A stretch of 64,000 bases of DNA from Pseudomonadota bacterium (lineage in GTDB: Bacteria > Pseudomonadota > Gammaproteobacteria > Xanthomonadales > Xanthomonadaceae), in assembly GCA_030528565.1 (NCBI GenBank), contig JAUMYP010000002.1:56854-120853 (forward strand). Reading direction: 5' to 3'. Shown piece by piece: positions 1,407-62,330 of the stretch (its first letter is position 1; each line of letters begins with the position of its first letter). Both the position numbers and the translations under genes were made by a program. The notes below the pieces were generated by a model. The model saw only the letters and a list, made by a program, of their open reading frames with translations. It searched no databases and was not told the DNA's origin.

Positions 1407-2138
1407 TCAATCATCCAAAGCAGTATTGAGGACGGCGGCAATCGCCGTGGTTTCTTTCAAATAGGCCGCATGGCCGTGTGCGGAGGCGATTTTTTGCAGC
1501 CACGCATCGGGCGCACGCACCGCCAGCTCCGCCAGCGCCCTTGCAGGCGCCAAGGTATCACCTTCCACGGCAATCACTGACAACGGTACAGCAATTTTTT
1601 CAGGTAAAACTTCGTGGCCGTGGATATTGATACCGGCCTTGGCCCATTGCCCGCTACACAGCGCATGCGCACCGCTGATGGCGATGACACGCCCGGCCAG
1701 GCGGGCATGGCGCGCGGCAAACTGCAAACCCACCAGCGCCCCGTAAGAAGCACCGATGAAAGCGCGCGCAGGTGGCAATGCCAGCGCCTTGCAAACCGCC
1801 GCAATGGCATCGGCCTGGGCGGCGGTACTGGCGTTCTCCAGCCAGTTGATGGCCAGCACCCGGTAACGGCCAAGCAGGCCAGCATGCGCCTGCCACCAGC
1901 CGGGTGTCGCATGCAAATCATTGCCGCATACATGGCGGCCTTCAGCCACGCCACCTGCGACAATCAGCAGCGGCGCATCAGCGCGACCGGCCAGCTCCCA
2001 GGCAATGCTGGCTTCCCGCCCGTCTATTTCACAGTGCAATTCCCCGCACCGGCTATGCGGCGCAGGCGGCCAATCCGCAGCGAGCTGACACGGAGCCTGG
2101 AGGGATTCGGCATTGTAAAAACTGGCAAGCAAACTCAT
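1407..2138 (-). CDS. alpha/beta-fold hydrolase
   Basis: GASYG nucleophile elbow (G-x-S-x-G). About 244 aa from the start MSLLASFYN. Its stop overlaps the start of the downstream PLP enzyme. Confidence 0.55.
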   Translation of the reverse strand: MSLLASFYNAESLQAPCQLAADWPPAPHSRCGELHCEIDGREASIAWELAGRADAPLLIVAGGVAEGRHVCGNDLHATPGWWQAHAGLLGRYRVLAINWLENASTAAQADAIAAVCKALALPPARAFIGASYGALVGLQFAARHARLAGRVIAISGAHALCSGQWAKAGINIHGHEVLPEKIAVPLSVIAVEGDTLAPARALAELAVRAPDAWLQKIASAHGHAAYLKETTAIAAVLNTALDD

Positions 2139-2403
2139 GACAGGACTCCCTGGGCAATCGAGTCCTGCGGTTGCAAACGTCGGGCGGCGCAATGCGCAGC
2201 TCAACCATCTGCGCGGTGAAGGCGTCACCGCAGGAATTGGCACCTTCGGGAACATCCCGGGTTGCCTCGGCTTCAAAGGGCCTGTCCCTCCGCCGATCTC
2301 GATGGATGCCGCGCAGCTTGCCAGCCGCCCCGGAAAAAGTCAATCTCTTTATGCGAATGAAAAGATTTTTGTTTGCCACACACAATCCGGCGATACTGCC
2401 GCG

Positions 2404-3231
2404 ATGTTTTTCCGCACCTCACTCACTCTGACCTGTCTGCTGCTTGCCGCGATACCAGCCAATACCCCGGCGCAATGGCTATCCTGGCCGCCCAAGCCCG
2501 CAGCCGACAGGCGCGCGCCAACACAGCCGCCCGCCGCTGCGCTGCGCCTTGATATCGAAAACCGCCACGGCCTGCGCCGTATCTGGGTGGAAAACAGCCT
2601 ACACGGCCCGGTGCAAGTGCGCATCGAAAACCGCCAGAGGCTGGCCGGTTTCCCCGTGCAGCGCCTCCTCAATGCACCGGGGCGGCATTTGCTGGCCGAA
2701 GTTGCACAGGAGGCCATGCTGGACTTGCAACTCACCGCCATCCCCGGCGCAGCGGCCGAACACCAGTCAGACTATCTGTACCCGTATCCCTTGCAGATGG
2801 ATGACATCCGCATCAGCCAGTTGCCGCGTGGCGCATTCAGCCATCACGATGCGGAAAATCTTGATGCCATCGACTTTGCCGCACCCATCGGCACGCCGGT
2901 TATCGCTGCCCGGGACGGGTTGGTAATGCAGGCCGAGGGCCGTTTCAGCGACCACGGCAGGCAGCGCGATGCCGTCAATCTGGTTCGCATCCTGCACGCA
3001 GATGGCAGCATGGCGGTCTATGCACATTTGCAGCAACACAGCCTGCAAATACGCGCCGGGCAGCATGTCCGCCGCGGTCAGGTCATCGCCCGTAGCGGCA
3101 ATTCCGGCTATTCCACCGCCCCGCACCTGCATTTCGTGGTGCAGGTCAATAACGGCCAGCGGCTGCAATCGGTGCCCTTCCGCATGGACAGCCCCAAGGG
3201 CGAGCTGCGCCTGCCGCGCAACCAGGATTGA
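2404..3231 (+). CDS. M23 family (LytM-domain) metallopeptidase, secreted
   Basis: N-terminal signal peptide MFFRTSLTLTCLLLAAIPA. C-terminal LytM motifs HHDAENLDAIDF...HLHF. Confidence 0.8.
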   Translation: MFFRTSLTLTCLLLAAIPANTPAQWLSWPPKPAADRRAPTQPPAAALRLDIENRHGLRRIWVENSLHGPVQVRIENRQRLAGFPVQRLLNAPGRHLLAEVAQEAMLDLQLTAIPGAAAEHQSDYLYPYPLQMDDIRISQLPRGAFSHHDAENLDAIDFAAPIGTPVIAARDGLVMQAEGRFSDHGRQRDAVNLVRILHADGSMAVYAHLQQHSLQIRAGQHVRRGQVIARSGNSGYSTAPHLHFVVQVNNGQRLQSVPFRMDSPKGELRLPRNQD

Positions 3232-3318: not shown

Positions 3319-4911
3319 ATGTCCGACATCCAGCAACAAGCCGCAAGGCGGCGCACTTTCGCCATCATCTCCCACCCCGACGCGGGCAAGACCACGCTGA
3401 CTGAAAAGCTGCTGCTGTTCGGTGGTGCGATCCAGATGGCCGGTTCGGTGAAGGGGCGCAAAGCGGCACGGCATGCCACCTCCGACTGGATGGCGCTGGA
3501 AAAGGAACGCGGCATCTCCGTCACCAGCTCGGTGATGCAGTTCCCGTATCAGGGGCGCATCGTCAACCTGCTCGACACCCCCGGCCACGCCGACTTCGGC
3601 GAGGACACCTACCGGGTGCTTTCGGCAGTCGATTCGGCACTGATGGTGATTGACGTCGCCAAGGGCGTGGAGGAGCGCACCATCAAGCTGATGGAAGTCT
3701 GCCGCCTGCGCGATACCCCCATCATGAGCTTCATCAACAAGCTCGACCGCGAGGGCAAGAACCCGATCGAGCTGCTGGACGAGGTGGAAAGCATCCTGAA
3801 AATCCAGTGCGCCCCGGTGACCTGGCCAATCGGCATGGGCAAGCGCCTGCGCGGCGTGGTGCATCTGATTAGCGGCGAGGTGCATCTGTACGAGGCTGGC
3901 AAGAACCATACCCGGCAGGACTCCACCATCTACCCGTCGCTGGACGACCCGCGCGTGCTGGAGGCCATCGGCGCGGACATGCTGGCCGAGCTGCGCGAGG
4001 AGCTGGAACTGGTGGAAGGCGCTTCGCACCCGTTTGACCGCGAGAAATACCTGGCGGGCGAGCAGGCGCCGGTGTTCTTCGGCTCGGCGGTCAACAATTT
4101 TGGCGTTGAGCCACTGCTGGATTTCTTTGTCGAGCATGCGCCACCACCGCAGGCGCGCGCTACCACCAGCCGCACGGTCGAGGCCAGCGAGGAAAAGCTC
4201 ACCGGCTTCGTGTTCAAGATTCAGGCCAATATGGACCCGCAGCACCGCGACCGGGTGGCCTTCATGCGCGTGTGCTCGGGCAGGTTCAGTGCTGGCATGA
4301 AAGCCTTCCAGCCGCGCACCGGCAAGGAGGTCAAACTCGCCAATGCGCTGACCTTCATGGCGTCCGACCGTGAAATCGCCGCCGAAGCCTATCCGGGTGA
4401 TGTCATCGGCATCCACAACCACGGCACGATTGCCATTGGCGATACCTTTACCGAAGGCGAAATGCTGGCCTTCACCGGCATTCCCAACTTTGCCCCGGAA
4501 CTGTTCCGCCGCGCCCGGCTGCGCGACCCGCTGAAGCTCAAACAATTGCAGAAGGGACTGGCGCAGCTCTCCGAAGAAGGCGCCACCCAGTTCTTCCGCC
4601 CGCTGATGAGCAATGACCTGATTCTGGGCGCCGTGGGTGTATTGCAATTTGATGTGGCCGCCTACCGCCTGAAAGACGAATACGGCGTGGATGCCAGTTT
4701 TGAGCCGGTCAGCATCAGCACCGCCCGCTGGGTGCAGTGTGACGACCCCAAAGAGCTGGAAGCCTTCCGTGAAAAGAATGCCGCCAATCTGGCCGTGGAT
4801 GCCGCTGGCGAACTGGTCTATCTCGCCCCCAGCCGGGTCAACCTGCAACTGGCCGAGGAGCGCGCCCCGGCGGTGCAATTCCTTGCCACCCGCGAGCACG
4901 CCCATGCCTAA
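3319..4911 (+). CDS. prfC: peptide chain release factor 3
   Basis: [39 protein letters not shown]...; GTPase G-motifs; 530 aa, collinear with RF3. Confidence 0.95.
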
Positions 4912-5014
4912 CGGCACTTAAGGCCGCCACAGGCTGGCCTTGTCACTGCGCCCATCAATAGCCGCATGAAGCATCCATTGAAAACAAAAAATTAACCCTG
5001 ATCGCCATTATCAG

Positions 5015-5533
5015 ATGTACGCTCAAAACTCAAGCAATCAGAGAAGATTGATTGAAATGAGCACATCAGGCAATCACGGCAACCAGCCCCGTCCCTTGGG
5101 CACCATTGTTGTTATAGGCCGGGGGTTTTCAATTTCTCTCGGCACTGACTTTGGTGGCTCCGGCATGCATTCGGAGCCGCCATCGCAGCATGCCAGCATT
5201 GGCGATGATTTCTCCAGCAGCGACACTGACAAGAATGAAATCGAAATCAAGGTGGAATTTGAGCGCCCCTTGACTGACGATGAAAAGAAAGCACTTGATG
5301 ATTTGGCCAAATCCATCGCCGAAATCTCCAGGCTGCTTTCCAAACTACCTGCCGATGCCAGGATAAAGCTCAGCGACGGCAAGGAAATCACCGGCCAGGA
5401 GCTCAAGGATATCTGGAGCCGGACGGATTTTTTATTGATGAAAAAGGAACGCCATACAGGAACCGGACAGGCCGTGGAGAAGCCGATTACAACGGAGGAA
5501 ATCCCCGTGTCCGCTTCACGATTGAAACCGTGA
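5015..5533 (+). CDS. hypothetical protein (upstream frame of a split HExxH-protein gene); alternative start at 5057
   Basis: 172-aa ORF in an AT-rich islet with no recognisable domain. A Ser/Asp-rich acidic segment and a KKALDDLAKSIAEISRLL helix. Its 3' end overlaps the frame-1 ORF that carries the HExxH motif. Confidence 0.45.
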   Translation: MYAQNSSNQRRLIEMSTSGNHGNQPRPLGTIVVIGRGFSISLGTDFGGSGMHSEPPSQHASIGDDFSSSDTDKNEIEIKVEFERPLTDDEKKALDDLAKSIAEISRLLSKLPADARIKLSDGKEITGQELKDIWSRTDFLLMKKERHTGTGQAVEKPITTEEIPVSASRLKP

Positions 5534-5850
5534 GCAACTACGCAAGATTGAATAAAAACTCACTAGCAGGCACCAACTATATAGCCCTGCACGAATTGGC
5601 ACATATGACTGCAGCCGGGCGTGCAAACAATCAAGCACATGGGGGGCAACCTGACCACTCCCCGGGCTGGAAAAAAAACGAAAGTCTCGCCAACGATGTA
5701 GCTCATGCGCTTCTCGGCCATGCCGGATTGCCCACCCTGCCTATTGGGGAAAAACAGGGCGGCTTAAGCAACCCGCCGCCGCAAGTCACCTTGCCATCCC
5801 CCCCAGGTGGCGGTGGCGGTGGCGGCCATGATCATCAGGTGATTCACTGA
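5368..5850 (+). CDS. HExxH zinc-metallopeptidase-like protein segment (downstream frame of the split gene; track ORF begins at GTG 5530)
   Basis: Frame 1 is open from 5368. Translation ...PDGFFIDEKGTPYRNRTGRGEADYNGGNPRVRFTIETVSNYARLNKNSLAGTNYIALHELAHMTAAGR...PPGGGGGGGHDHQVIH contains a zincin HExxH motif. Confidence 0.45.
   Translation, partial: AQRRQGNHRPGAQGYLEPDGFFIDEKGTPYRNRTGRGEADYNGGNPRVRFTIETVSNYARLNKNSLAGTNYIALHELAHMTAAGRANNQAHGGQPDHSPGWKKNESLANDVAHALLGHAGLPTLPIGEKQGGLSNPPPQVTLPSPPGGGGGGGHDHQVIH
5428..5434 (+). other. T-TTT-TTA heptamer at the junction of the two frames: candidate -1 frameshift site or homopolymer indel
   Basis: The zero frame reads GAT-TTT-TTA, so the heptamer is phased as X XXY YYZ. 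A -1 slip joins ...KDIWSRTDFL to IDEKGTPYRN...HELAH. Confidence 0.4.
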
Positions 5851-5851
5851 A

Positions 5852-6706
5852 ATGAACAAGTCATTCCTTGCCGCTATCCTGCCTGCACTGCTTTGTATCG
5901 GCTGCGCTTCTTCTCCCTCTACACGCGACGCCATACAATCGCCATCATTATGCGAACCGCCTGAAAGGGCGCTGGAGCATATCACCATTGGCAAGCATAT
6001 TATCGGGGATGCCGTACTGGAAGGGATGCACTTCCCGCCCGGACAACCGCGACCGGAAACCTTGTATGACCAGGGCGAGACCTTTCATTTTGCATCTGCC
6101 TACCAGATGACTGGCGCTTGTTCGCACCGGATCAGCTATTACTCAGGTGCCCCTACCCCAATTTTCTATGTACTGGGCAGCCCAGACACCACACCTCGTA
6201 CTGCCGAGGTATTCATAATGGCAAAAGACAGCCCAACGCCATTTCATATAGAAATCATCGACAAAAAACCATTTTTTTACGACACCACTTATTCAACAGA
6301 CCCCCATCCCCACATCCCTGGCGCCACGTTCAAAATGGCAAGGGAAATCACCACCTTATTCCATGATGAATTGGAGTCAGTAAAAAAACATGGAAAATTC
6401 GAATTACCTCCTGACGGCAGACGCCCCTCTCCCGAGGATCACAAAGTCATGCTCGGGCTTTGGCAGACGCCACAGGGGGCTTTTATCGGCTCCTTCGTGC
6501 AAATGGCCGATGGCCGCTTTGGCCCGGTGATGGAAGAATTCAGCACCCGCTTCCCGGTTGACAGCCTGCTTTACTTTCCCGGCCATAATGCCCCGCTTGG
6601 CACAATCAGTCTTGTCGCCCGGAAAAACGGCGAGACTTGGCTGATCAGCCAGATCTGGTATCACCCAAGATACGAAGAACTGGAACAAATGGTGCTCCAA
6701 CCGTAG
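5852..6706 (+). CDS. putative lipoprotein (candidate cognate immunity/partner protein)
   Basis: [21 protein letters not shown] (signal peptide plus lipobox Cys). The start is coupled to the upstream stop (TGAAATG). No known domain; AT-rich. Confidence 0.6.
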
Positions 6707-6810
6707 CAGCAGGCCAGACCGGCGTTCCAAGGCAGGGAGTGTTACGGTCAATGGGATTTTTTCCCCGGTATCCCGGTGGCAAAATGGTGCCCCTTTTGCG
6801 GAGAGCGCCC

Positions 6811-7626
6811 ATGACCTTCATCGACCGCCTACACCAGCGCTGGCAATCGTCCCATTCCCTGCTGTGCGTGGGGCTTGACCCTGACCCGGCACGTTTCCCG
6901 GAGCATTACGCCAATGATGAAGATGCACTGTTTTCGTTCTGCCGCGATATCGCCGATGCCACGGCGGAATATGCCTGCGCGTTCAAGCCACAGATTGCCT
7001 ATTTCGCCGCGCACAATGGTGGCGAATCGGCCTTGCAGCGGCTGATTGCACATATCAATGCAGCGCATCCGGACGTCCCGGTGGTGCTGGACAGCAAGCG
7101 CGGTGATATCGGCAGCACCGCCGCACAATATGTAGTAGAAGCCTTTGACCGCTTTGGGGCCGATGCGGTCACGCTCAATCCCTATATGGGTTATGACAGT
7201 GCCGAGCCGTTCCTCTCTCGTGATGGTCGTGGCTGTGTGTTTCTGTGCCATACCTCCAATCCCGGAGCGCGGGATTTTCAGGAGCTACTGATTGATGGTG
7301 AGCCGCTGTATCAGCATGTGGCGCGCAGCATCGCGGAAAAATGGAATGGCAATGGCAATTGCGCGTTGGTGGTCGGTGCAACCTTCCCCGAAGAACTTGG
7401 CCGCATCCGCACCATTGTTGGCGACATGCCGCTGCTGATTCCCGGCGTCGGCGCGCAAGGGGGCGATGTGGCGGCTGTGGTGAAAAACGGTAAAACCGCT
7501 GATGGCACCGGGCTGATGATCAATTCCTCGCGCGGCATCCTGTATGCCTCAATGGATAGCGACTTCCTCGAAGCCGCCGCCCAGGCTGCCCGCAGCCTGC
7601 GTGACGAAATCAACCGCTATCGCTGA
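6811..7626 (+). CDS. pyrF: orotidine 5'-phosphate decarboxylase (type 2)
   Basis: [25 protein letters not shown]...[14 protein letters not shown], a typical long-form PyrF. Confidence 0.9.
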
Positions 7627-30902: not shown

Positions 30903-30978
30903 TGGTGGGCCCACCAGGATTCGAACCTGGAACCAAAGGATTATGAGTCCTCTGCTCTAACCGTTGAGCTATAGGCCC
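30903..30978 (-). tRNA. tRNA, anticodon CAU; probably tRNA-Ile2 (lysidine, ileX-like) rather than elongator Met
   Basis: 76-nt cloverleaf GGGCCUAUAGCUCAACGGUUAGAGCAGAGGACUCAUAAUCCUUUGGUUCCAGGUUCGAAUCCUGGUGGGCCCACCA. It has a 7-bp acceptor stem, a CAU anticodon and an encoded CCA. Closest in pattern to E. coli ileX and sits in the same place, directly 3' of rpoD. It lacks initiator features. Confidence 0.85.
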
Positions 30979-43221: not shown

Positions 43222-44037
43222 ATGGCAATGCATCAGGACACCCACATCAGCAACGCTGCGCCCATCATCCGGGTGCGCGGCCTTGTCAACCGCTTCGGCG
43301 CGCAAACCGTACATGACGGGCTGGACCTGGATGTGCATCGCGGCGAAATTCTCGGCGTGGTCGGCGGCTCGGGCACCGGCAAGTCGGTGCTGATGCGCTC
43401 AATCATCGGCCTGCGTCGCCCCAATGCCGGCCAGGTGCAGGTGATGGGCATTGATGCGCTCTCGCCCAGCCGCCGCGACCGGCAGCAGGTCAGGCGCAAT
43501 ACCGGCGTGCTGTTTCAGGATGGCGCGCTGTTTTCATCACTCAGCGTCGGTGAAAACATCGAAGTGCCGCTACGCGAGCATTACCCGCAGCTGGACGCTG
43601 AATTGCGTCATGAGCTGGCGCTGCTGAAAACCAGGCTTGCCGGCCTGCCAGCCGAGGCCATCGACAAGCTGCCCTCACAACTTTCCGGCGGCATGCGCAA
43701 GCGCGCCGGGCTTGCCCGCGCACTGGCACTGGACCCGCCGCTGCTGTTCCTGGACGAGCCAACCGCCGGGCTGGACCCCATCGGCGCGGCCGCGTTTGAC
43801 GAACTATTGCTTACCCTCTCCCGCGCACTCGGGCTGACAGTATTTTTGATTACCCACGACCTCGACACGCTGTACGCCATCTGTGACCGCATCGCGGTGC
43901 TGGCGGAGAAGCGCGTCATCATCAATGCGCCACTGGCTGAAGTGGAAAAATTCGACCACCCCTGGGTGCAGGAATATTTTCACGGCCCGCGCGCACGCGC
44001 CGCGCGCGCCACCGCACAGCGTTCAAACAGGGATTGA
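43222..44037 (+). CDS. ABC transporter ATP-binding protein (MlaF-like)
   Basis: Walker A GGSGTGKS, LSGGMRKR signature, Walker B LLFLDEP. Confidence 0.9.
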   Translation: MAMHQDTHISNAAPIIRVRGLVNRFGAQTVHDGLDLDVHRGEILGVVGGSGTGKSVLMRSIIGLRRPNAGQVQVMGIDALSPSRRDRQQVRRNTGVLFQDGALFSSLSVGENIEVPLREHYPQLDAELRHELALLKTRLAGLPAEAIDKLPSQLSGGMRKRAGLARALALDPPLLFLDEPTAGLDPIGAAAFDELLLTLSRALGLTVFLITHDLDTLYAICDRIAVLAEKRVIINAPLAEVEKFDHPWVQEYFHGPRARAARATAQRSNRD

Positions 44038-58929: not shown

Positions 58930-59991
58930 TCAGTTCTCCCCATCTCGCCCCATGCGCTCCAGACGGTAGCTGCCATCCAGCACCCGCTGCACCCACGCCT
59001 GGTTGTCCAGATACCAGCGCACGGTATCGGCAATGCCCTGTTCAAAGGTATGCGCAGGCTCCCAGCCCAGCTCACGCTTGAGCTTGGAAGCATCAATCGC
59101 ATAACGGCGGTCATGGCCGGGACGGTCGCGCACATAGGTGATTTGCGCCTGATACTTCTGGCCGTCGGCGCGCGGGCGCAGCTCGTCCAGCAGGGCGCAG
59201 ATGGTCATCACCACCTCGATGTTCTGGCGCTCGGCATTGCCGCCGACATTGTAGGTTTCGCCCACCTGCCCCTTGGCAAGCACAGTGCGGATGGCCGCGC
59301 AGTGGTCGCCCACATACAGCCAGTCGCGCACATTCTTGCCATCGCCATAAATCGGCAGCGGCTCACCGGCCAGCGCCCGGGCGATGATGAGCGGGATGAG
59401 CTTCTCCGGAAACTGGAACGGGCCGTAATTATTGGAGCAATTGGTGGTCAGCACCGGCAGGCCATAGGTATGGTGGAAGGCGCGCACCAGATGGTCAGAC
59501 GCAGCCTTGGAGGCCGAGTATGGCGAATTCGGCGCATAGGCGGTCTCTTCGGTAAACAGGCCAGTCTCGCCCAGCGAGCCATACACTTCATCGGTGGACA
59601 CATGCAGGAAGCGGAACGCCGCCTGTCCGGCCTCATCCAGACCGCGCCAGTAATCGCGCGTGGCCTCCAGCAAGCCCAGCGTCCCCACCACATTGGTGTG
59701 CACAAACGCCGCCGGGCCATCAATGGAACGGTCCACATGGCTTTCGGCAGCGAAATTAATCACCGCATCCGGGCGGTGCCCGGCAAGCAAGCGCGCCACC
59801 AGCTCGCGGTCACCGATATCGCCCTTGACGAATACATGATTGGCATTGTCGGCAAGCTCGGCCAGGGTATCGAGATTGCCCGCATAGGTCAGCAAATCCA
59901 GATTCACCACCTTGACCCCGGCCTTGACCGCCTCCAGCACGAAATTGCCGCCAATGAAGCCGGCGCCGCCGGTCACCAACCATGTTTGCAT
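58930..59991 (-). CDS. rmlB: dTDP-glucose 4,6-dehydratase
   Basis: [18 protein letters not shown]..., an SDR with the YxxxK motif. Confidence 0.93.
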
Positions 59992-60059: not shown

Positions 60060-62330
60060 TCAGAAACGTGGCGGAAACGCGAGCATAAACTCCTGCTGCA
60101 AATGCAAGGATAGATTTGGATTGTAGAAGGGATCGTAGTTCAGAGAATCCCCATAACGAGCCCTCATAAACTCAATCTCCCCAGCAAATCTAGCTTGCTT
60201 TTCAGGATTATCATCACGCCCACGCGAGGCGGACTCATGATGATACAGCTCAGCAAATGGAGTCCATATATTCCTGTAGCCCGCATCCCTCAGTCGCAAG
60301 CAAAAATCCACATCATTGAAAGCCACTGCCAATTGCTCATCCAGCCCGGAAACAGCTTCAAAAGCGCTGCGACTTACAACGAGACATGCGCCCGTAACTA
60401 TACTCACCACCTGCGTCAATCGCCCCCGACAAAAATAACCATCAAAACCACGCGACGCACAGCTGTAAATATGACCTGCAATTCCCCCCAACCCACTCAC
60501 AACCCCTGCATGCTGAATGGTGTCATCCGGATAATAAAGCATCGCCCCAACTGCACCCACACCCGGCTTTAACGCATGCGAAACCATTTCATCAAGCCAC
60601 CCCTCAGAAATCACCTCGATATCATTATTAATAAGCCCTAAAACCTCACCTCTCGCAATCGATGCAGCATAATTATTGATTGCCGAATAATTAAATTCAG
60701 CATCATAGGGAACCACCCTAACCCTAAAGTCATCCTGTATATAGCTAAAGTATTCTAACGTCTCAGACTCCACAGAGCCATTATCAACAATGATAATATC
60801 AAAATTTTCATATCTTGTTTTTTCAATAATACTGCCAACACAAACCTTGAGCAGATCCACCTTATCACGGGTCGGAATAATAAGGCTAACCAAAGGCTTC
60901 CGTTCCGGCAAAATTATTTCCGACCTGATATAGCCATCATTTCCACCTACCACATTCGCCCTTACACCAATCCTTTCAAAATGCTGACTAACTGCACTTT
61001 CCGCCGCAACAGCTGCATAGCTCTTTTCATGAACCCCCATTGAAGTCGAACCTGGAATGGTTCTCCAGTGATAAAGAACCTTAGGAATATGAATAATCTG
61101 TGACGATTTAATTTTCTCAATACAGCGCAATGCCAAATCCCAATCCTGAGAACCTTCCATCCCCACTCTAAAACCACCGACTTCACGAACCAGGCCAGCC
61201 TCATAGACACCCAGATGAGAAATGCAATTCTGACCAAGAAACAGCTCGTAATTCCAGTCCGTTTTGAAATAAGGACCAAACCTAACCCCATCTTCGTCAA
61301 TCTTATCCTCATCACTGTAAATTACTTTTGCATCTGGATTCTTATCCAATGCCTCGGCCACACATAACAATGCCTCGGGATGCAACTCATCATCATGATC
61401 AAGCAAAACCAAAAAATCCCCCCGGGCAATTTCCAGCGCAGAATTTGACGCTTCAGATATATGCCCATTTTTATTGCGGGAAATGTATTTTACCCGACCA
61501 TCCTTACTTGAATATTCCTCCAGAACCTTCAACACATGCCTCTCGGTAGAGGCATCATCCGCAACACAAATCTCCCAATTCTCATAAACCTGCGCCAAGA
61601 CACTATCCAGCGCCTTCCTGAACCATTTTTCCGGAGGATTATAAACAGGCATAATTACAGAAAAAAGAGGCAGCCCTGACAACCCCCTTTTGCGCTCCTC
61701 CAGCTCCCGAGAGCGCCACTCAACCGGAGGATCGTAAATTCTTACCCATCCCTGATAACTTGAGCAAACATTCGAGAATTTACTCAAATAACTTACCCTC
61801 AACTCCGCGACTGCCTGCCGTACACCTTGCCGCCTTGCCACAAGAAAGAGACTTCTTATGAAGGCGTACCAAACACTACCAGCCTGCCCTCCCCTACTTT
61901 CACAAACAGAGCTTATCATCCCCCAATAAGCAGCCACCCTAGGAATACGACGAATACAGGCATCCCCAAGCGAGAAAAACGCCTTACGAACAGTAGGATC
62001 AAACCTCAATGACTTTGCAGGCTTTATCAAGACAATAATGCAGTCAATCTTATCCTCATCCTGACGATACCAAAGAGGCACTATGTTTATTTCACCAAAC
62101 CCCCCTCCATAGTCAGGGTATATACAAGGTCCTACAATCCCTCCAAGCTCCCCAGTCAGCTGAATTTGCAAGTGATACCACCCCTGCTCCCAATCACCCT
62201 CCCCTTCTTTACAAATCAGGAATTGAGGATCATTGTCCACTGATTGCCACCGGCTCCACCTATCTCCTTCCCCACCCTCTCGACGCAGACCCAACAAAGG
62301 ATTAAAACCGATTTTTATTTTCTTCATCAT
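60060..62330 (-). CDS. multidomain glycosyltransferase: unknown about 230-aa N-domain plus two tandem GT2 (GT-A) domains; low-GC
   Basis: GT2 domain 1: FSVIMPVYNPPEKWFRKALDSVLAQ...LLDHDDE. GT2 domain 2: VSLIIPTRDK...IIIVDNGS...LINNDIEV. The N-terminal 230 aa have no recognisable motifs. GC is clearly below the flanks. Confidence 0.75.
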   Translation of the reverse strand: MMKKIKIGFNPLLGLRREGGEGDRWSRWQSVDNDPQFLICKEGEGDWEQGWYHLQIQLTGELGGIVGPCIYPDYGGGFGEINIVPLWYRQDEDKIDCIIVLIKPAKSLRFDPTVRKAFFSLGDACIRRIPRVAAYWGMISSVCESRGGQAGSVWYAFIRSLFLVARRQGVRQAVAELRVSYLSKFSNVCSSYQGWVRIYDPPVEWRSRELEERKRGLSGLPLFSVIMPVYNPPEKWFRKALDSVLAQVYENWEICVADDASTERHVLKVLEEYSSKDGRVKYISRNKNGHISEASNSALEIARGDFLVLLDHDDELHPEALLCVAEALDKNPDAKVIYSDEDKIDEDGVRFGPYFKTDWNYELFLGQNCISHLGVYEAGLVREVGGFRVGMEGSQDWDLALRCIEKIKSSQIIHIPKVLYHWRTIPGSTSMGVHEKSYAAVAAESAVSQHFERIGVRANVVGGNDGYIRSEIILPERKPLVSLIIPTRDKVDLLKVCVGSIIEKTRYENFDIIIVDNGSVESETLEYFSYIQDDFRVRVVPYDAEFNYSAINNYAASIARGEVLGLINNDIEVISEGWLDEMVSHALKPGVGAVGAMLYYPDDTIQHAGVVSGLGGIAGHIYSCASRGFDGYFCRGRLTQVVSIVTGACLVVSRSAFEAVSGLDEQLAVAFNDVDFCLRLRDAGYRNIWTPFAELYHHESASRGRDDNPEKQARFAGEIEFMRARYGDSLNYDPFYNPNLSLHLQQEFMLAFPPRF

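Follow-up and report, generated by a model that had tools for sequence, protein, structure and literature searches.

What does the AT-rich islet between prfC and pyrF encode, and how did it come to lie there? A sequence-only reading of the locus had described a horizontally acquired insertion with three ORFs, and had likened it to a cassette of an effector-like metallopeptidase and a lipoprotein. The islet occupies positions 4912–6810 of the window, the 64-kb stretch of DNA analysed here. Our preferred reading, to which we give a probability of about 60%, is that it is a copy of a bacteriocin-like module of two genes, exchanged horizontally and by now partly decayed. The pair of an HExxH protein and a lipoprotein is a very rare, undescribed family. 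The locus is laid out as follows.

3319–4911, + strand: prfC (peptide chain release factor 3; Pfam GTP_EFTU and RF3_C), the left flank, outside the islet
4912–5014, + strand: spacer between prfC and the islet genes, with the left islet boundary at ~4976–4985
5015–5850, + strand: single zincin-like HExxH gene, the toxin candidate, frameshifted; start at ATG 5015 or ATG 5057
5852–6706, + strand: intact lipoprotein gene, 284 aa, conserved as partner to the HExxH gene; its product is a candidate for a periplasmic immunity protein or an inhibitor of the protease
6707–6810, + strand: spacer between the islet genes and pyrF, in which the high-identity block ends on the right at ~6724
6811–7626, + strand: pyrF (OMP decarboxylase; Pfam OMPdecase), the right flank, outside the islet

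The islet carries two genes, not three

ORF1 (5015/5057–5533) and ORF2 (5530–5850) are the two halves of one HExxH gene, whose reading passes from frame 2 to frame 1 between positions 5433 and 5434 and ends with the TGA at 5848–5850. Sister genomes and homologs span the ORF1/ORF2 junction in one frame, which reduces the earlier count of three ORFs to two genes. Where the window has GGATTTTTTATTG, the sister genome NML07-0707 has GGATTTTTTCATTG and encodes one unbroken 264/278-aa protein. An intact orthologue of this length is present in L001 and L101, homologs P0002–P0005 are also continuous across the frameshift point, and all distant homologs read through it. Of the translational coupling proposed for the three ORFs, the TGAaATG junction (5848–5854) stands, whereas the GTGA overlap is an artefact of the frameshift inside one gene. 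The GenBank entries give the HExxH gene as two hypothetical proteins, Q4B94_01005 and Q4B94_01010, which ought to be joined into one entry marked as frameshifted, and the lipoprotein as hypothetical protein Q4B94_01015. The features within the HExxH gene are listed below.

5428–5434, + strand: frameshift site TTTTTTA, with one base missing after 5433 (C in both sister genomes, from pairwise and three-way alignments)
5470–5505, + strand: GRGEADYNGGNP, the most conserved family motif, 3′ of the frameshift and 5′ of the ‘ORF2’ GTG
5590–5604, + strand: HELAH, the HExxH zinc-binding/catalytic motif, residues 179–183
5677–5697, + strand: NESLAND, with E209, a candidate for the third zinc ligand as in gluzincins
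5807–5827, + strand: (GGT GGC)n tract; the C-terminal poly-Gly run that it encodes is hypervariable in length

The HExxH protein is a predicted gluzincin-type zincin

Across 13 sequences, the GRGEADYNGGNP motif has five invariant residues (G141, A143, D144, G148 and P150) and three with conservation of 90% or more (Y145, N146 and G147). H179, E180 and H183 of HELAH are also invariant in these sequences and lie on helix 171–184 of the AF2 model, confirming the zincin motif noticed earlier. In gluzincins, the third zinc ligand is a Glu on the next helix (HExxH…E), often within NExxxD as in thermolysin. The HExxH protein has an invariant E209 within NE(S/R)xAN(D/S), 26 residues past H183 and on model helix 203–222, and sequence and model together suggest that E209 would be a zinc ligand. 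The active-site helix motif, the candidate third-ligand Glu and the overall alpha+beta zincin fold expected of a gluzincin are all present. The poly-Gly run near the C-terminus has 7 Gly in the window, 9 in L003, 6 in NML07-0707 and 40 in NML95-0200.

Scans of both islet proteins and their homologs against Pfam, NCBIfam and PADLOC returned no family, in agreement with the earlier view that none could be named. The Pfam threshold was reached in 0 of 12 members, the best match being Peptidase_M91 (E = 0.095, one member). Scores for the named zincin toxin and effector families (Tox-MPTase2-5, Peptidase_M91/NleD-HopH1, ATLF) stayed below the gathering score, and PDB sequence searches with profiles of both families gave nothing meaningful.

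The partner is a signal-peptide protein that travels with the HExxH gene

The lipoprotein ATG lies 1 nt past the stop codon of the toxin candidate. A signal peptide followed by a lipobox-like LLCIG↓C, then ↓CASS, with the Cys codon at 5903–5905, is in keeping with the earlier assignment of the last ORF as a lipoprotein. Measured against the lipobox [LVI][ASTVI][GAS]C, the Gly at −1 and the Ile at −2 fit, but −3 is Cys (Gly in NML07-0707). Some partner homologs have a canonical lipobox (LTSAC, LPAC, LTGC or ITSGC) and others an ordinary signal peptide, and one or the other is always present; the family also has two conserved Cys. The model of the lipoprotein is all-beta with no specific structural match, and searches against Pfam and PDB found no match.

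The partner lies directly downstream of the HExxH gene in nine loci (window, L001, L101, L084, L087, L089, L090, L091 and L099). The two families are therefore adjacent across unrelated genomes, as toxin–immunity pairs are, with two exceptions: in L088 (P0004) the toxin candidate stands alone, with no partner directly downstream, and in L098 (P0010) the partner has no toxin gene nearby. This gene pairing, together with the ever-present signal peptide or lipobox on the partner, argues for a toxin/periplasmic-immunity, or a protease/inhibitor, arrangement.

Relatives link the pair to double-glycine leaders and type I export

A double-glycine leader ends in GG, GA or GS and has hydrophobic residues at −4, −7 and −12 and Glu at −8. 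Canonical leaders were found in five homologs: P0002 (MEDELDFIAGG), P0032 (LTPEECEFIAGG), L095 (LTLQELELIAGG), L096 (LTLEEMELITGG) and L099 (LHETDLRWVAGG). The window protein departs from this pattern. Translation from ATG 5015 gives MYAQNSSNQRRLIEMSTSG↓NHG…, ending in SG with Ser at −4, a degenerate leader (…LIEMSTSG versus …ELxxIxGG), and translation from ATG 5057 gives none.

Genes for a C39-peptidase ABC exporter (PCAT) and an HlyD-type membrane-fusion protein (MFP) are present in L084–L086 and L099. In L084 and in Asticcacaulis L099, the HExxH gene shares an operon with the PCAT and MFP genes. The sequence-only reading had suggested a search for T6SS or T3SS loci elsewhere in the genome; the relatives instead tie the gene to a type I system with a C39-peptidase ABC exporter. 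The 64-kb window contains no cognate PCAT or HlyD-type MFP, its sole match being a generic ABC ATPase at 43267–43944.

The family is thinly spread. A metagenome scan with the family motifs yielded only three further loci, and neither protein had a tblastn match among plasmids. The five-gene module of L084 is an AT-rich island, with a GC content of 0.44–0.49 within 0.63. N-terminal regions vary among members while the C-terminal domain is constant, as in polymorphic toxins, and in Lysobacter sp. CA199 the pair adjoins a giant protein with Tle1-like lipase and PG-binding regions. The ~95-aa N-terminal domain of Lysobacter members P0003, P0026 and P0027 was suspected of being a secretion-targeting domain, an assignment we dropped; PDB and Pfam searches with it were blank. 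Overall, the gene pair, the zincin fold, the double-glycine leaders and the PCAT/HlyD genes in homologous loci support the resemblance to a metallopeptidase and lipoprotein cassette that had been drawn at the outset.

The same pair could be read as an ordinary secreted extracellular protease with a periplasmic self-protection inhibitor, in the style of serralysin/AprA with AprI/Inh, serving nutrition or host interaction. An ABC/HlyD-exported zinc protease encoded in one operon with a signal-peptide partner follows the same logic, the L084 fusion protein matches the AprE-type barrel family, and the sister genomes come from isolates labelled NML, which we take to be clinical. We nevertheless consider this unlikely. 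The leaders are N-terminal and of the double-glycine, bacteriocin/microcin type rather than C-terminal RTX-type signals, the N-terminal regions are swapped among members, and the CA199 pair sits beside a lipase/PG-binding giant protein. Moreover, the module behaves like a small mobile islet, rich in AT, whose partners also occur as orphans, and serralysins and AprI are unrelated to it by sequence or fold.

The copy in the window is probably a remnant

The frameshift recurs in the Logan assembly L003. This assembly and the GenBank MAG have the T6A in common and differ elsewhere by a 6-nt repeat unit. The two may derive from the same reads, and the frameshift could be an assembly error. We considered whether the gene is in fact unbroken, either because the base was lost through an error in sequencing or assembly or because full-length protein is made by −1 ribosomal slippage on T_TTT_TTA. 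The lesion does sit in a homopolymer, and an X_XXY_YYZ heptamer, arisen by coincidence from the deletion, fits exactly in the upstream frame. A −1 shift there restores the family-conserved reading (…TDFLIDEKG…), and the downstream frame runs without a stop to the normal terminus. However, a single frame encodes the protein in the two sister genomes and in every homolog, and frameshifting is thus not conserved. A downstream stimulatory structure is absent (fold no better than shuffles, z = −0.15), and the T6A appears in two assemblies that differ elsewhere. We regard an unbroken gene as improbable, and programmed −1 frameshifting at the 5428–5434 heptamer was rejected.

Constraint was estimated from dN/dS. 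For the intact toxin alleles of the two NML isolates it is 0.2–0.8 on 11–12 substitutions, a weak constraint, and the HExxH gene may therefore be drifting in the whole lineage. For the lipoprotein it is 0.28–0.45.

The window lacks an exporter and the leader is degenerate, so this copy of the module most likely survives as a decaying remnant in which the immunity gene is retained. With toxin and immunity genes only, and with the 1-nt deletion in the former, the functional remnant is probably the immunity lipoprotein. In this genome the toxin gene is likely inactive and the cassette is probably a remnant rather than a working effector locus. The lipoprotein may guard the cell against related toxins that competitors make.

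The islet moves horizontally between related genomes

Mean GC content is 0.530 at 4912–6810 versus 0.614 ± 0.039 across the 64 kb (1.8-kb windows), and GC3 is 0.60 and 0.56 in the islet ORFs versus 0.81 in prfC and 0.70–0.85 in most genes, a compositional deviation of the kind that marks genomic islands. Only one other region of the 64 kb, at 60.0–62.5 kb, has a lower GC content. In 300-nt windows, GC is 0.46–0.57 at ~4950–6750, compared with ~0.60–0.65 in prfC. An exact drop from ~65% to ~48% between the prfC stop and the pyrF start had been claimed. The dip and its sharp left edge, at the prfC stop, are real, whereas the right edge is soft because the GC content of pyrF is itself only 0.57–0.60.

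The boundaries can be placed more closely by comparison. Lysobacteraceae synteny extends to the prfC stop codon and breaks off exactly there. Relative to NML07-0707, positions 4912–4975 are indel-rich and 84% identical, and identity is 97–100% from 4976 on; in NML95-0200, homology to the window starts only at ~4985. Past ~6724, identity drops from 99% to 93% and, within pyrF, further to 80–90%. A + strand scan of 4912–5014 found no sigma-70-like promoter or terminator. As had been stated, no tRNA, integrase or transposase lies beside the islet within the window, and direct or inverted repeats flanking it are only short matches at chance level. The mobility genes, tRNA target and flanking direct repeats of many genomic islands are thus absent from the window.

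Three sister genomes (window, NML07-0707 and NML95-0200) were compared in three pairs; the assemblies of the two NML isolates are GCA_002798295.1 and GCA_002798255.1. Islet dS is 0.018–0.099 versus 0.165–0.67 for pyrF, PHO4 and prfC, 3- to 30-fold below the flanking core genes in all three comparisons, and pyrF alone has a dS of 0.41–0.67 against the sister genomes. The islet is 96–98% identical among the three genomes and the flanking genes 86–95%; nucleotide identity is 96.7% for the islet versus 86.5–88% (Fisher p = 2e-23 on nucleotide differences). The islet thus has a history discordant with its flanks, and its low dS indicates recent horizontal exchange. The earlier claim of a horizontally acquired insertion holds in the sense that the islet is a horizontally moving unit (dS 0.02–0.10 versus 0.17–0.67 in the flanks). 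An IS481 fragment lies inside prfC of NML07-0707. We searched for an empty prfC–pyrF junction, and pyrF lay within 6 kb of prfC in 0 of 80 species-representative genomes; no empty junction was found in relatives because the adjacency exists only in this small clade.

That these are vertically inherited, lineage-specific genes of incidentally low GC, and no mobile islet, is very improbable: prfC–islet–pyrF order is identical in all three available clade genomes and integrase, att-like repeat and tRNA are all absent, but the dS deficit holds in every pair, the boundaries of the identity profile coincide with the GC dip, the homologous L084 module likewise forms a low-GC island in another genome, the family is scattered over Gamma- and Alphaproteobacteria, and IS elements adjoin the islet or prfC in both NML isolates.

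A proposed two-gene bacteriocin-like module

In our preferred reading of the islet as a bacteriocin-like module, gene 1 would encode a ~26 kDa protein whose C-terminal ~190 residues form a minimal gluzincin-type zincin metallopeptidase domain. In intact relatives, an N-terminal double-glycine leader would direct one-step export via PCAT and an HlyD-type membrane-fusion protein. The product of gene 2, a periplasm-exposed (lipo)protein, most likely binds and blocks the peptidase, which would shield the envelope of producer and kin cells. Envelope protection by gene 2 implies that the enzyme would act in the periplasm or envelope of target Gram-negative cells. The architecture of the locus suggests the toxicity of gene 1 and the immunity conferred by gene 2; we likewise presume that the enzyme is an active peptidase with a target in the periplasm, that immunity works through direct binding and that this copy has lost its function.

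A broader proposal is more tentative, and we put it at slightly less than even odds. The family may represent an unrecognised class of enzymatic bacteriocins, ~25-kDa zincin peptidases that are delivered via microcin-type double-glycine/PCAT type I systems, act in the periplasm of the target and are countered by a dedicated, beta-rich periplasmic lipoprotein, with a toxin–immunity core that passes between species as a tiny AT-rich islet and can decay to an immunity-only remnant. If true, this would bring two new families, one of enzymes and one of immunity proteins, into the interbacterial weaponry of Gram-negative bacteria and would widen the cargo range of double-glycine/PCAT systems from peptides to folded-enzyme-sized proteins. 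It would also offer a clean natural case in which a cassette has spread horizontally between related species and its immunity gene has outlasted the toxin. The biological consequence for this particular genome is probably modest.

Comparison with known systems

Class III bacteriocins such as lysostaphin, zoocin A and enterolysin A are large zinc-dependent peptidase bacteriocins with a linked immunity determinant. The proposed module would share with them large, enzymatic, zinc-dependent peptidases next to such a determinant. They differ in having an M23 (LytM) fold without HExxH, in being Sec-secreted and Gram-positive, and in conferring immunity by cell-wall modification rather than by a binding protein.

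In AprA/AprI and PrtA/Inh, genes for the zinc protease, a signal-peptide inhibitor and ABC/HlyD export are clustered, and the inhibitor guards the periplasm of the producer. The clustering of a zinc protease, a signal-peptide partner and ABC/HlyD genes is alike. Serralysins, however, are metzincins (M10) that contain RTX repeats and carry their secretion signal at the C-terminus, and their inhibitor is a small beta-barrel; no homology of either islet protein to serralysins or AprI was found.

Among the zincin domains of polymorphic toxins, the relevant part of the survey by Zhang et al. 2012 (PMC3482391) names Tox-MPTase1-5, HopH1/NleD M91, ALF-MPTase and PVC-metallopeptidase. The organization it describes there, a small C-terminal HExxH domain, interchangeable N-terminal trafficking regions and then a dedicated partner gene, resembles that of the HExxH family (PMC3482391). 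The same part gives metallopeptidase toxin families without dedicated immunity proteins (Zhang et al. 2012; PMC3482391). None of the Pfam models for these domains matches the HExxH family, M91 being the nearest at the E-value given above, and the family is without RHS, PAAR, WXG or LXG N-terminal modules.

[quoted passage not shown] It is neutralised in a complex with a downstream-encoded, periplasm-exposed immunity protein with conserved cysteines; depending on the species, Tpi is periplasmic, a lipoprotein or membrane-anchored (PMC6899460). Membership of the HExxH/lipoprotein family in Tpe–Tpi is not supported, and delivery differs, by fusion to the T6SS spike there and by a GG leader with PCAT in the relatives here. 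The partner family is similar to Tpi in its two conserved Cys and its signal peptide or lipobox.

The MccV locus encodes the cargo CvaC, the immunity protein Cvi, the HlyD-type MFP CvaA and the C39-peptidase ABC exporter CvaB. Compared with such class II microcin loci, the cargo here is an enzyme-sized zincin domain, ~24–30 kDa when mature, the immunity candidate is a periplasmic (lipo)protein of 230–285 aa where those loci have a small protein of the inner membrane, and the window has a degenerate leader and no exporter. Type I systems with GG leaders have been described as exporting cargos of <10 kDa (PMC10231218). In the relatives, the LxxxELxxIxGG leader, the order of cargo and then immunity-like gene, and the placement of MFP and PCAT in the same operon all follow the class II microcin plan, and the L084 module, a small AT-rich mobile island, is again like these loci.

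Composition and probable exchange of the islet

The islet lies between two genes whose identities, prfC and pyrF, were confirmed by Pfam:

3319-4911, prfC
4912-6810, low-GC islet
5015-5850, gene 1, HExxH protein and toxin candidate
5852-6706, gene 2, partner lipoprotein
6811-7626, pyrF

In a 300-nt sliding window, GC is 0.60-0.65 throughout prfC, falls to 0.48-0.52 at 4951-5700 and 0.46 at 6151-6450, and recovers only to 0.56-0.60 in pyrF. The whole islet has a GC of 0.530, whereas the 1.8-kb windows of the 64 kb taken together give 0.614 ± 0.039, and only one other region of the window, 60.0-62.5 kb, falls lower. The islet ORFs have GC3 values of 0.60 and 0.56, compared with 0.81 in prfC and 0.70-0.85 in most of the remaining long ORFs. 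The drop from prfC stop to pyrF start described by the sequence-only reading is real and sharp on the left, but its right edge is gradual. The lack of landmarks noted there also stands, as no integrase or transposase was found near the islet in the window and the sole tRNA gene is at 30.9 kb.

Several other features of the window were recorded:

2202-2308 (minus strand), SAM riboswitch, 89 bits
26419-26760 (minus strand), RNase P RNA (class A)
30903-30978 (minus strand), tRNA-Met
60060-62330 (minus strand) with 58930-59991, second, stronger low-GC island (GC 0.44-0.52)

No further RNA genes were detected. The riboswitch overlaps the 5' part of the listed ORF 2137-3231, so the true start of this M23 peptidase gene must sit further downstream. 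In the second island, a gene for a 756-aa protein that carries a pair of GT2 glycosyltransferase domains adjoins an NDP-sugar 4,6-dehydratase gene (Pfam GDP_Man_Dehyd/Epimerase), and the region looks like a surface-polysaccharide locus.

Synteny with other Lysobacteraceae breaks off exactly at the prfC stop codon. None of 80 other genomes has pyrF within 6 kb of prfC, and the islet is present in all three genomes sharing the prfC-pyrF junction. Between the window and the closest genome, Lysobacteraceae bacterium NML07-0707 (contig L001; about 92% nucleotide identity overall), the islet (4976-6724) is 96.7% identical, compared with 88.0% for the last 382 nt of prfC and 86.5% for pyrF (Fisher p = 2e-23, islet versus flanks). 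Synonymous divergence follows the same pattern.

Table. dS across the three genome pairs of the window, NML07-0707 and NML95-0200 (contig L101)
Toxin gene: 0.018-0.042
Lipoprotein gene: 0.040-0.099
PHO4: 0.165-0.28
prfC 3' end: 0.45
pyrF: 0.41-0.67

This low divergence indicates that the common ancestor of the islet is much more recent than that of its surroundings. We regard the divergence data as decisive for the predicted horizontal origin of the islet, in agreement with the acquisition first proposed. By inference, the islet was most likely exchanged among these lineages by recombination via conserved flanks. Mobility is further supported by the complete five-gene module of the homologous locus L084, a GC island of 0.44-0.49 in a 0.63-GC genome, and by NML07-0707, where prfC beside the islet appears to be interrupted by an IS481-type element, or by an assembly break. 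There, prfC homology starts only at about residue 398, and the contig end (L001:1-330) encodes the N-terminus of an IS481-family transposase (Pfam LZ_Tnp_IS481).

NML95-0200 adds to this supporting context, in that unrelated sequence meets the islet there some 30 nt ahead of ATG 5015. This contig begins about 165 nt 5' of the islet ATG; L101:1-140 is unrelated to prfC and resembles the 3' end of an ORF, with no Pfam hit, and homology to the window runs from about 4985. Between pyrF and PEMT/PHO4, both NML genomes carry genes absent from the window (L001:3516-7096 and L101:2935-6448). Both have an esterase and an ADH/metal-repressor pair; L001 also has a PLD-like gene, and L101 a PIN/PhdYeFM toxin-antitoxin pair. 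Overall, this is a plastic neighbourhood.

Gene 1 is a single, frameshifted gene

The islet had been read as three coupled ORFs, but it contains two genes, which carry three tags, Q4B94_01005/01010/01015, in the GenBank MAG that the window belongs to. Three-frame translation of the window showed that the frame of ORF2, the second half of gene 1 as first split, is open well 5' of its GTG, where it encodes …DGFFIDEKGTPYRNRTGRGEADYNGGNPRVRFTIETVSNY…, while the C-terminal tail of ORF1, the first half, is similar to nothing. With the conceptually fused ORF1+ORF2 protein as query, we retrieved homologs P0002-P0005, single proteins of 34-45% identity whose alignment spans the junction (…W(S/K)xTDF(V/A)INExG…RGEADYNGGNP…HE(L/I)(A/G)HMT…). 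Gene 1 of NML07-0707 is an uninterrupted ORF (264/278 aa), and the sole indel relative to the window is one base, a C absent after 5433 (NML07-0707 GGATTTTTTCATTG, window GGATTTTTTATTG). The C and an unbroken ORF are likewise present in NML95-0200, the third genome of the clade. A single frame is the ancestral condition, and the 'GTGA' coupling between ORF1 and ORF2 therefore arose as a side effect of the frameshift.

The same 1-base lesion occurs in an independent Logan assembly, L003, whose sequence departs from that of the window by one GGTGGC unit. A pure assembly artefact is less likely on this account, although L003 may share reads with the MAG. In the upstream frame the deletion also produces T_TTT_TTA, a classic slippery heptamer for -1 frameshifting, at which a -1 shift would restore the full protein. 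Since no downstream structure was found (z = -0.15) and the one-frame state is ancestral, programmed frameshifting was rejected and the heptamer is treated as coincidence.

A small zincin-type family with probable export in relatives

The HExxH family has extremely few members. Searching 5.8 billion clustered proteins with a profile gave 14 clusters, two of them the window's own fragments; a metagenome scan added three loci, and one further, diverged member is found in Asticcacaulis. As first suspected, no named family applies, with nothing significant in Pfam, NCBIfam, PADLOC or a PDB sequence search. Invariant residues are G141, A143, D144, G148 and P150 (within GxADYNGGNP), H179, E180 and H183 (HExxH), and E209, A212 and N213 (NExxAN). 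The HExxH motif lies on one helix and the invariant Glu 26 residues further, on the next, which is the gluzincin arrangement. From this we conclude that gene 1 encodes a new, minimal zincin-type domain, presumably catalytic.

The C-terminal poly-Gly is encoded by a (GGTGGC)n repeat (5807-5827) of hypervariable length, with 7 glycines in the window, 9 in L003, 6 in NML07-0707 and 40 in NML95-0200 (L101 about 990-1090). Gly-rich tails also end distant members (P0030 GGGGGGEYEEHPSH, window protein GGGGGGGHDHQVIH).

Five family members begin with canonical double-glycine leaders.

Table. Double-glycine leaders of HExxH family members
P0002: MRHFSGDFDGLRLLMEDELDFIAGG
P0032: MRKLTPEECEFIAGG
L096: MRELTLEEMELITGG
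L095: …RELTLQELELIAGG
L099 (Asticcacaulis sp. SL142): MRLLHETDLRWVAGG

In loci L084-L086 the operon order is toxin gene, partner, JmjC/cupin, HlyD-type fusion protein and Peptidase_C39-ABC exporter (PCAT). In L099 it is toxin, partner, beta-lactamase-fold protein, AMP-binding protein, unknown gene, carrier protein, HlyD-type protein and C39-ABC exporter. This layout is that of microcin/bacteriocin type I export. Such systems are described as exporting cargos <10 kDa (PMC10231218), and the predicted mature cargo here, at 24-30 kDa, would be unusual. Putative modification genes sit in both PCAT operons and differ between them, being JmjC/cupin-8 hydroxylase-like in L084 (7952-9109) and a beta-lactamase-fold protein, AMP-binding enzyme and carrier protein in L099 (7044-10930); they may point to modification of the cargo or of a product exported along with it.

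Other members have unrelated N-terminal regions in place of the leader, a ~95-aa domain in P0003, P0026 and P0027 (Lysobacter) and long low-complexity regions in P0029-P0031. Swapping of N-terminal regions in this way is the modularity known from polymorphic toxins (PMC3482391). At a distance of 2 kb from the P0026 toxin-partner pair of Lysobacter sp. CA199, L090:3853-8046 encodes a 1397-aa protein with Tle1-like lipase (phospholipase) and PG_binding_1 domains, surrounded by small unknown ORFs; this may be an antibacterial effector neighbourhood. In most members the leader gives way to an (I/V)VV(I/T)G strand and then to a Gly/Pro-rich linker. The window protein retains this arrangement (…LGTIVVIG…), and its N-terminus, MYAQNSSNQRRLIEMSTSG-NHG…, can at best be called a degenerate leader. 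No PCAT was found within the 64-kb window.

The partner lipoprotein

Gene 2 starts 1 nt past the gene 1 stop and encodes 284 aa with a signal peptide and a lipobox-like LLCIG|C. GenBank lists its NML95-0200 counterpart as a 123-aa fragment; the full 284-codon frame is open (L101:1101-1955). HMMER, run in full against 1.84 billion representatives, detected 19 relatives of 180-310 aa, almost all with a signal peptide or canonical lipobox. Common to them are two conserved Cys, a PHPxxxGxxFxMA motif and, towards the C-terminus, the motif GLW…F…PLRSVSYFPxPDxPxGxLGLVQ…RLISxDWxHP. Pfam and PDB searches gave no match, and the AF2 model (pLDDT 74) is all-beta and resembles generic propeller blades only.

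A family member lies directly 3' of the HExxH gene in L084, L087, L090, L091 and L099, and a more distantly related one in L089, so that conservation of the pair extends over Gamma- and Alphaproteobacteria. There are two exceptions, on syntenic metagenomic contigs (PTR2/MFS transporter, glyoxalase, CBU_0592). In L088, PTR2 and glyoxalase flank a toxin homolog that lacks a leader and has no adjacent partner, and L098 has the partner alone on the other side of PTR2, with no toxin gene nearby. The pair is thus not always adjacent, and decay may differ among related genomes.

State and likely function of the cassette

The toxin gene is under weak constraint (dN/dS 0.17-0.79, from 11-12 substitutions per pair, too few to prove relaxed selection) and the lipoprotein gene under moderate constraint (0.28-0.45), with core genes at 0.05-0.08. 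The frameshift, degenerate leader, lack of exporter genes in the window and hypervariable poly-Gly together point to a remnant. On the most economical reading, a toxin-immunity core would have become detached from its export genes, and the islet would now be kept mainly for the immunity gene while the toxin gene decays in this lineage.

A gene pair encoding first a secreted hydrolase and then a periplasm-exposed binding protein is the usual mark of envelope-acting toxins and their immunity proteins. By this analogy we predict a toxin/immunity mechanism for genes 1 and 2, with a probability of roughly 0.6; our confidence in the structural facts is high. The main alternative, a protease/inhibitor pair of the AprA/AprI type, would involve the same binding mechanism. 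The acquired orphan toxin-immunity-like cassette of the sequence-only reading is largely borne out, with three corrections: two genes instead of three, a frameshifted toxin gene, and PCAT type I export in relatives in place of the T6SS/T3SS route suggested for checking.

The best functional precedent for the toxin-immunity reading is the C-terminal HExxH peptidase of VgrG2b with PA0261, whose orthologues are periplasmic, lipoprotein or membrane-anchored, and disulfide-dependent (PMC6899460). Bacteriocins or effectors encoded together with immunity proteins are a known kind of system. What appears to be undescribed is the two protein families themselves and the joining of a double-glycine leader to a zincin cargo of enzyme size.
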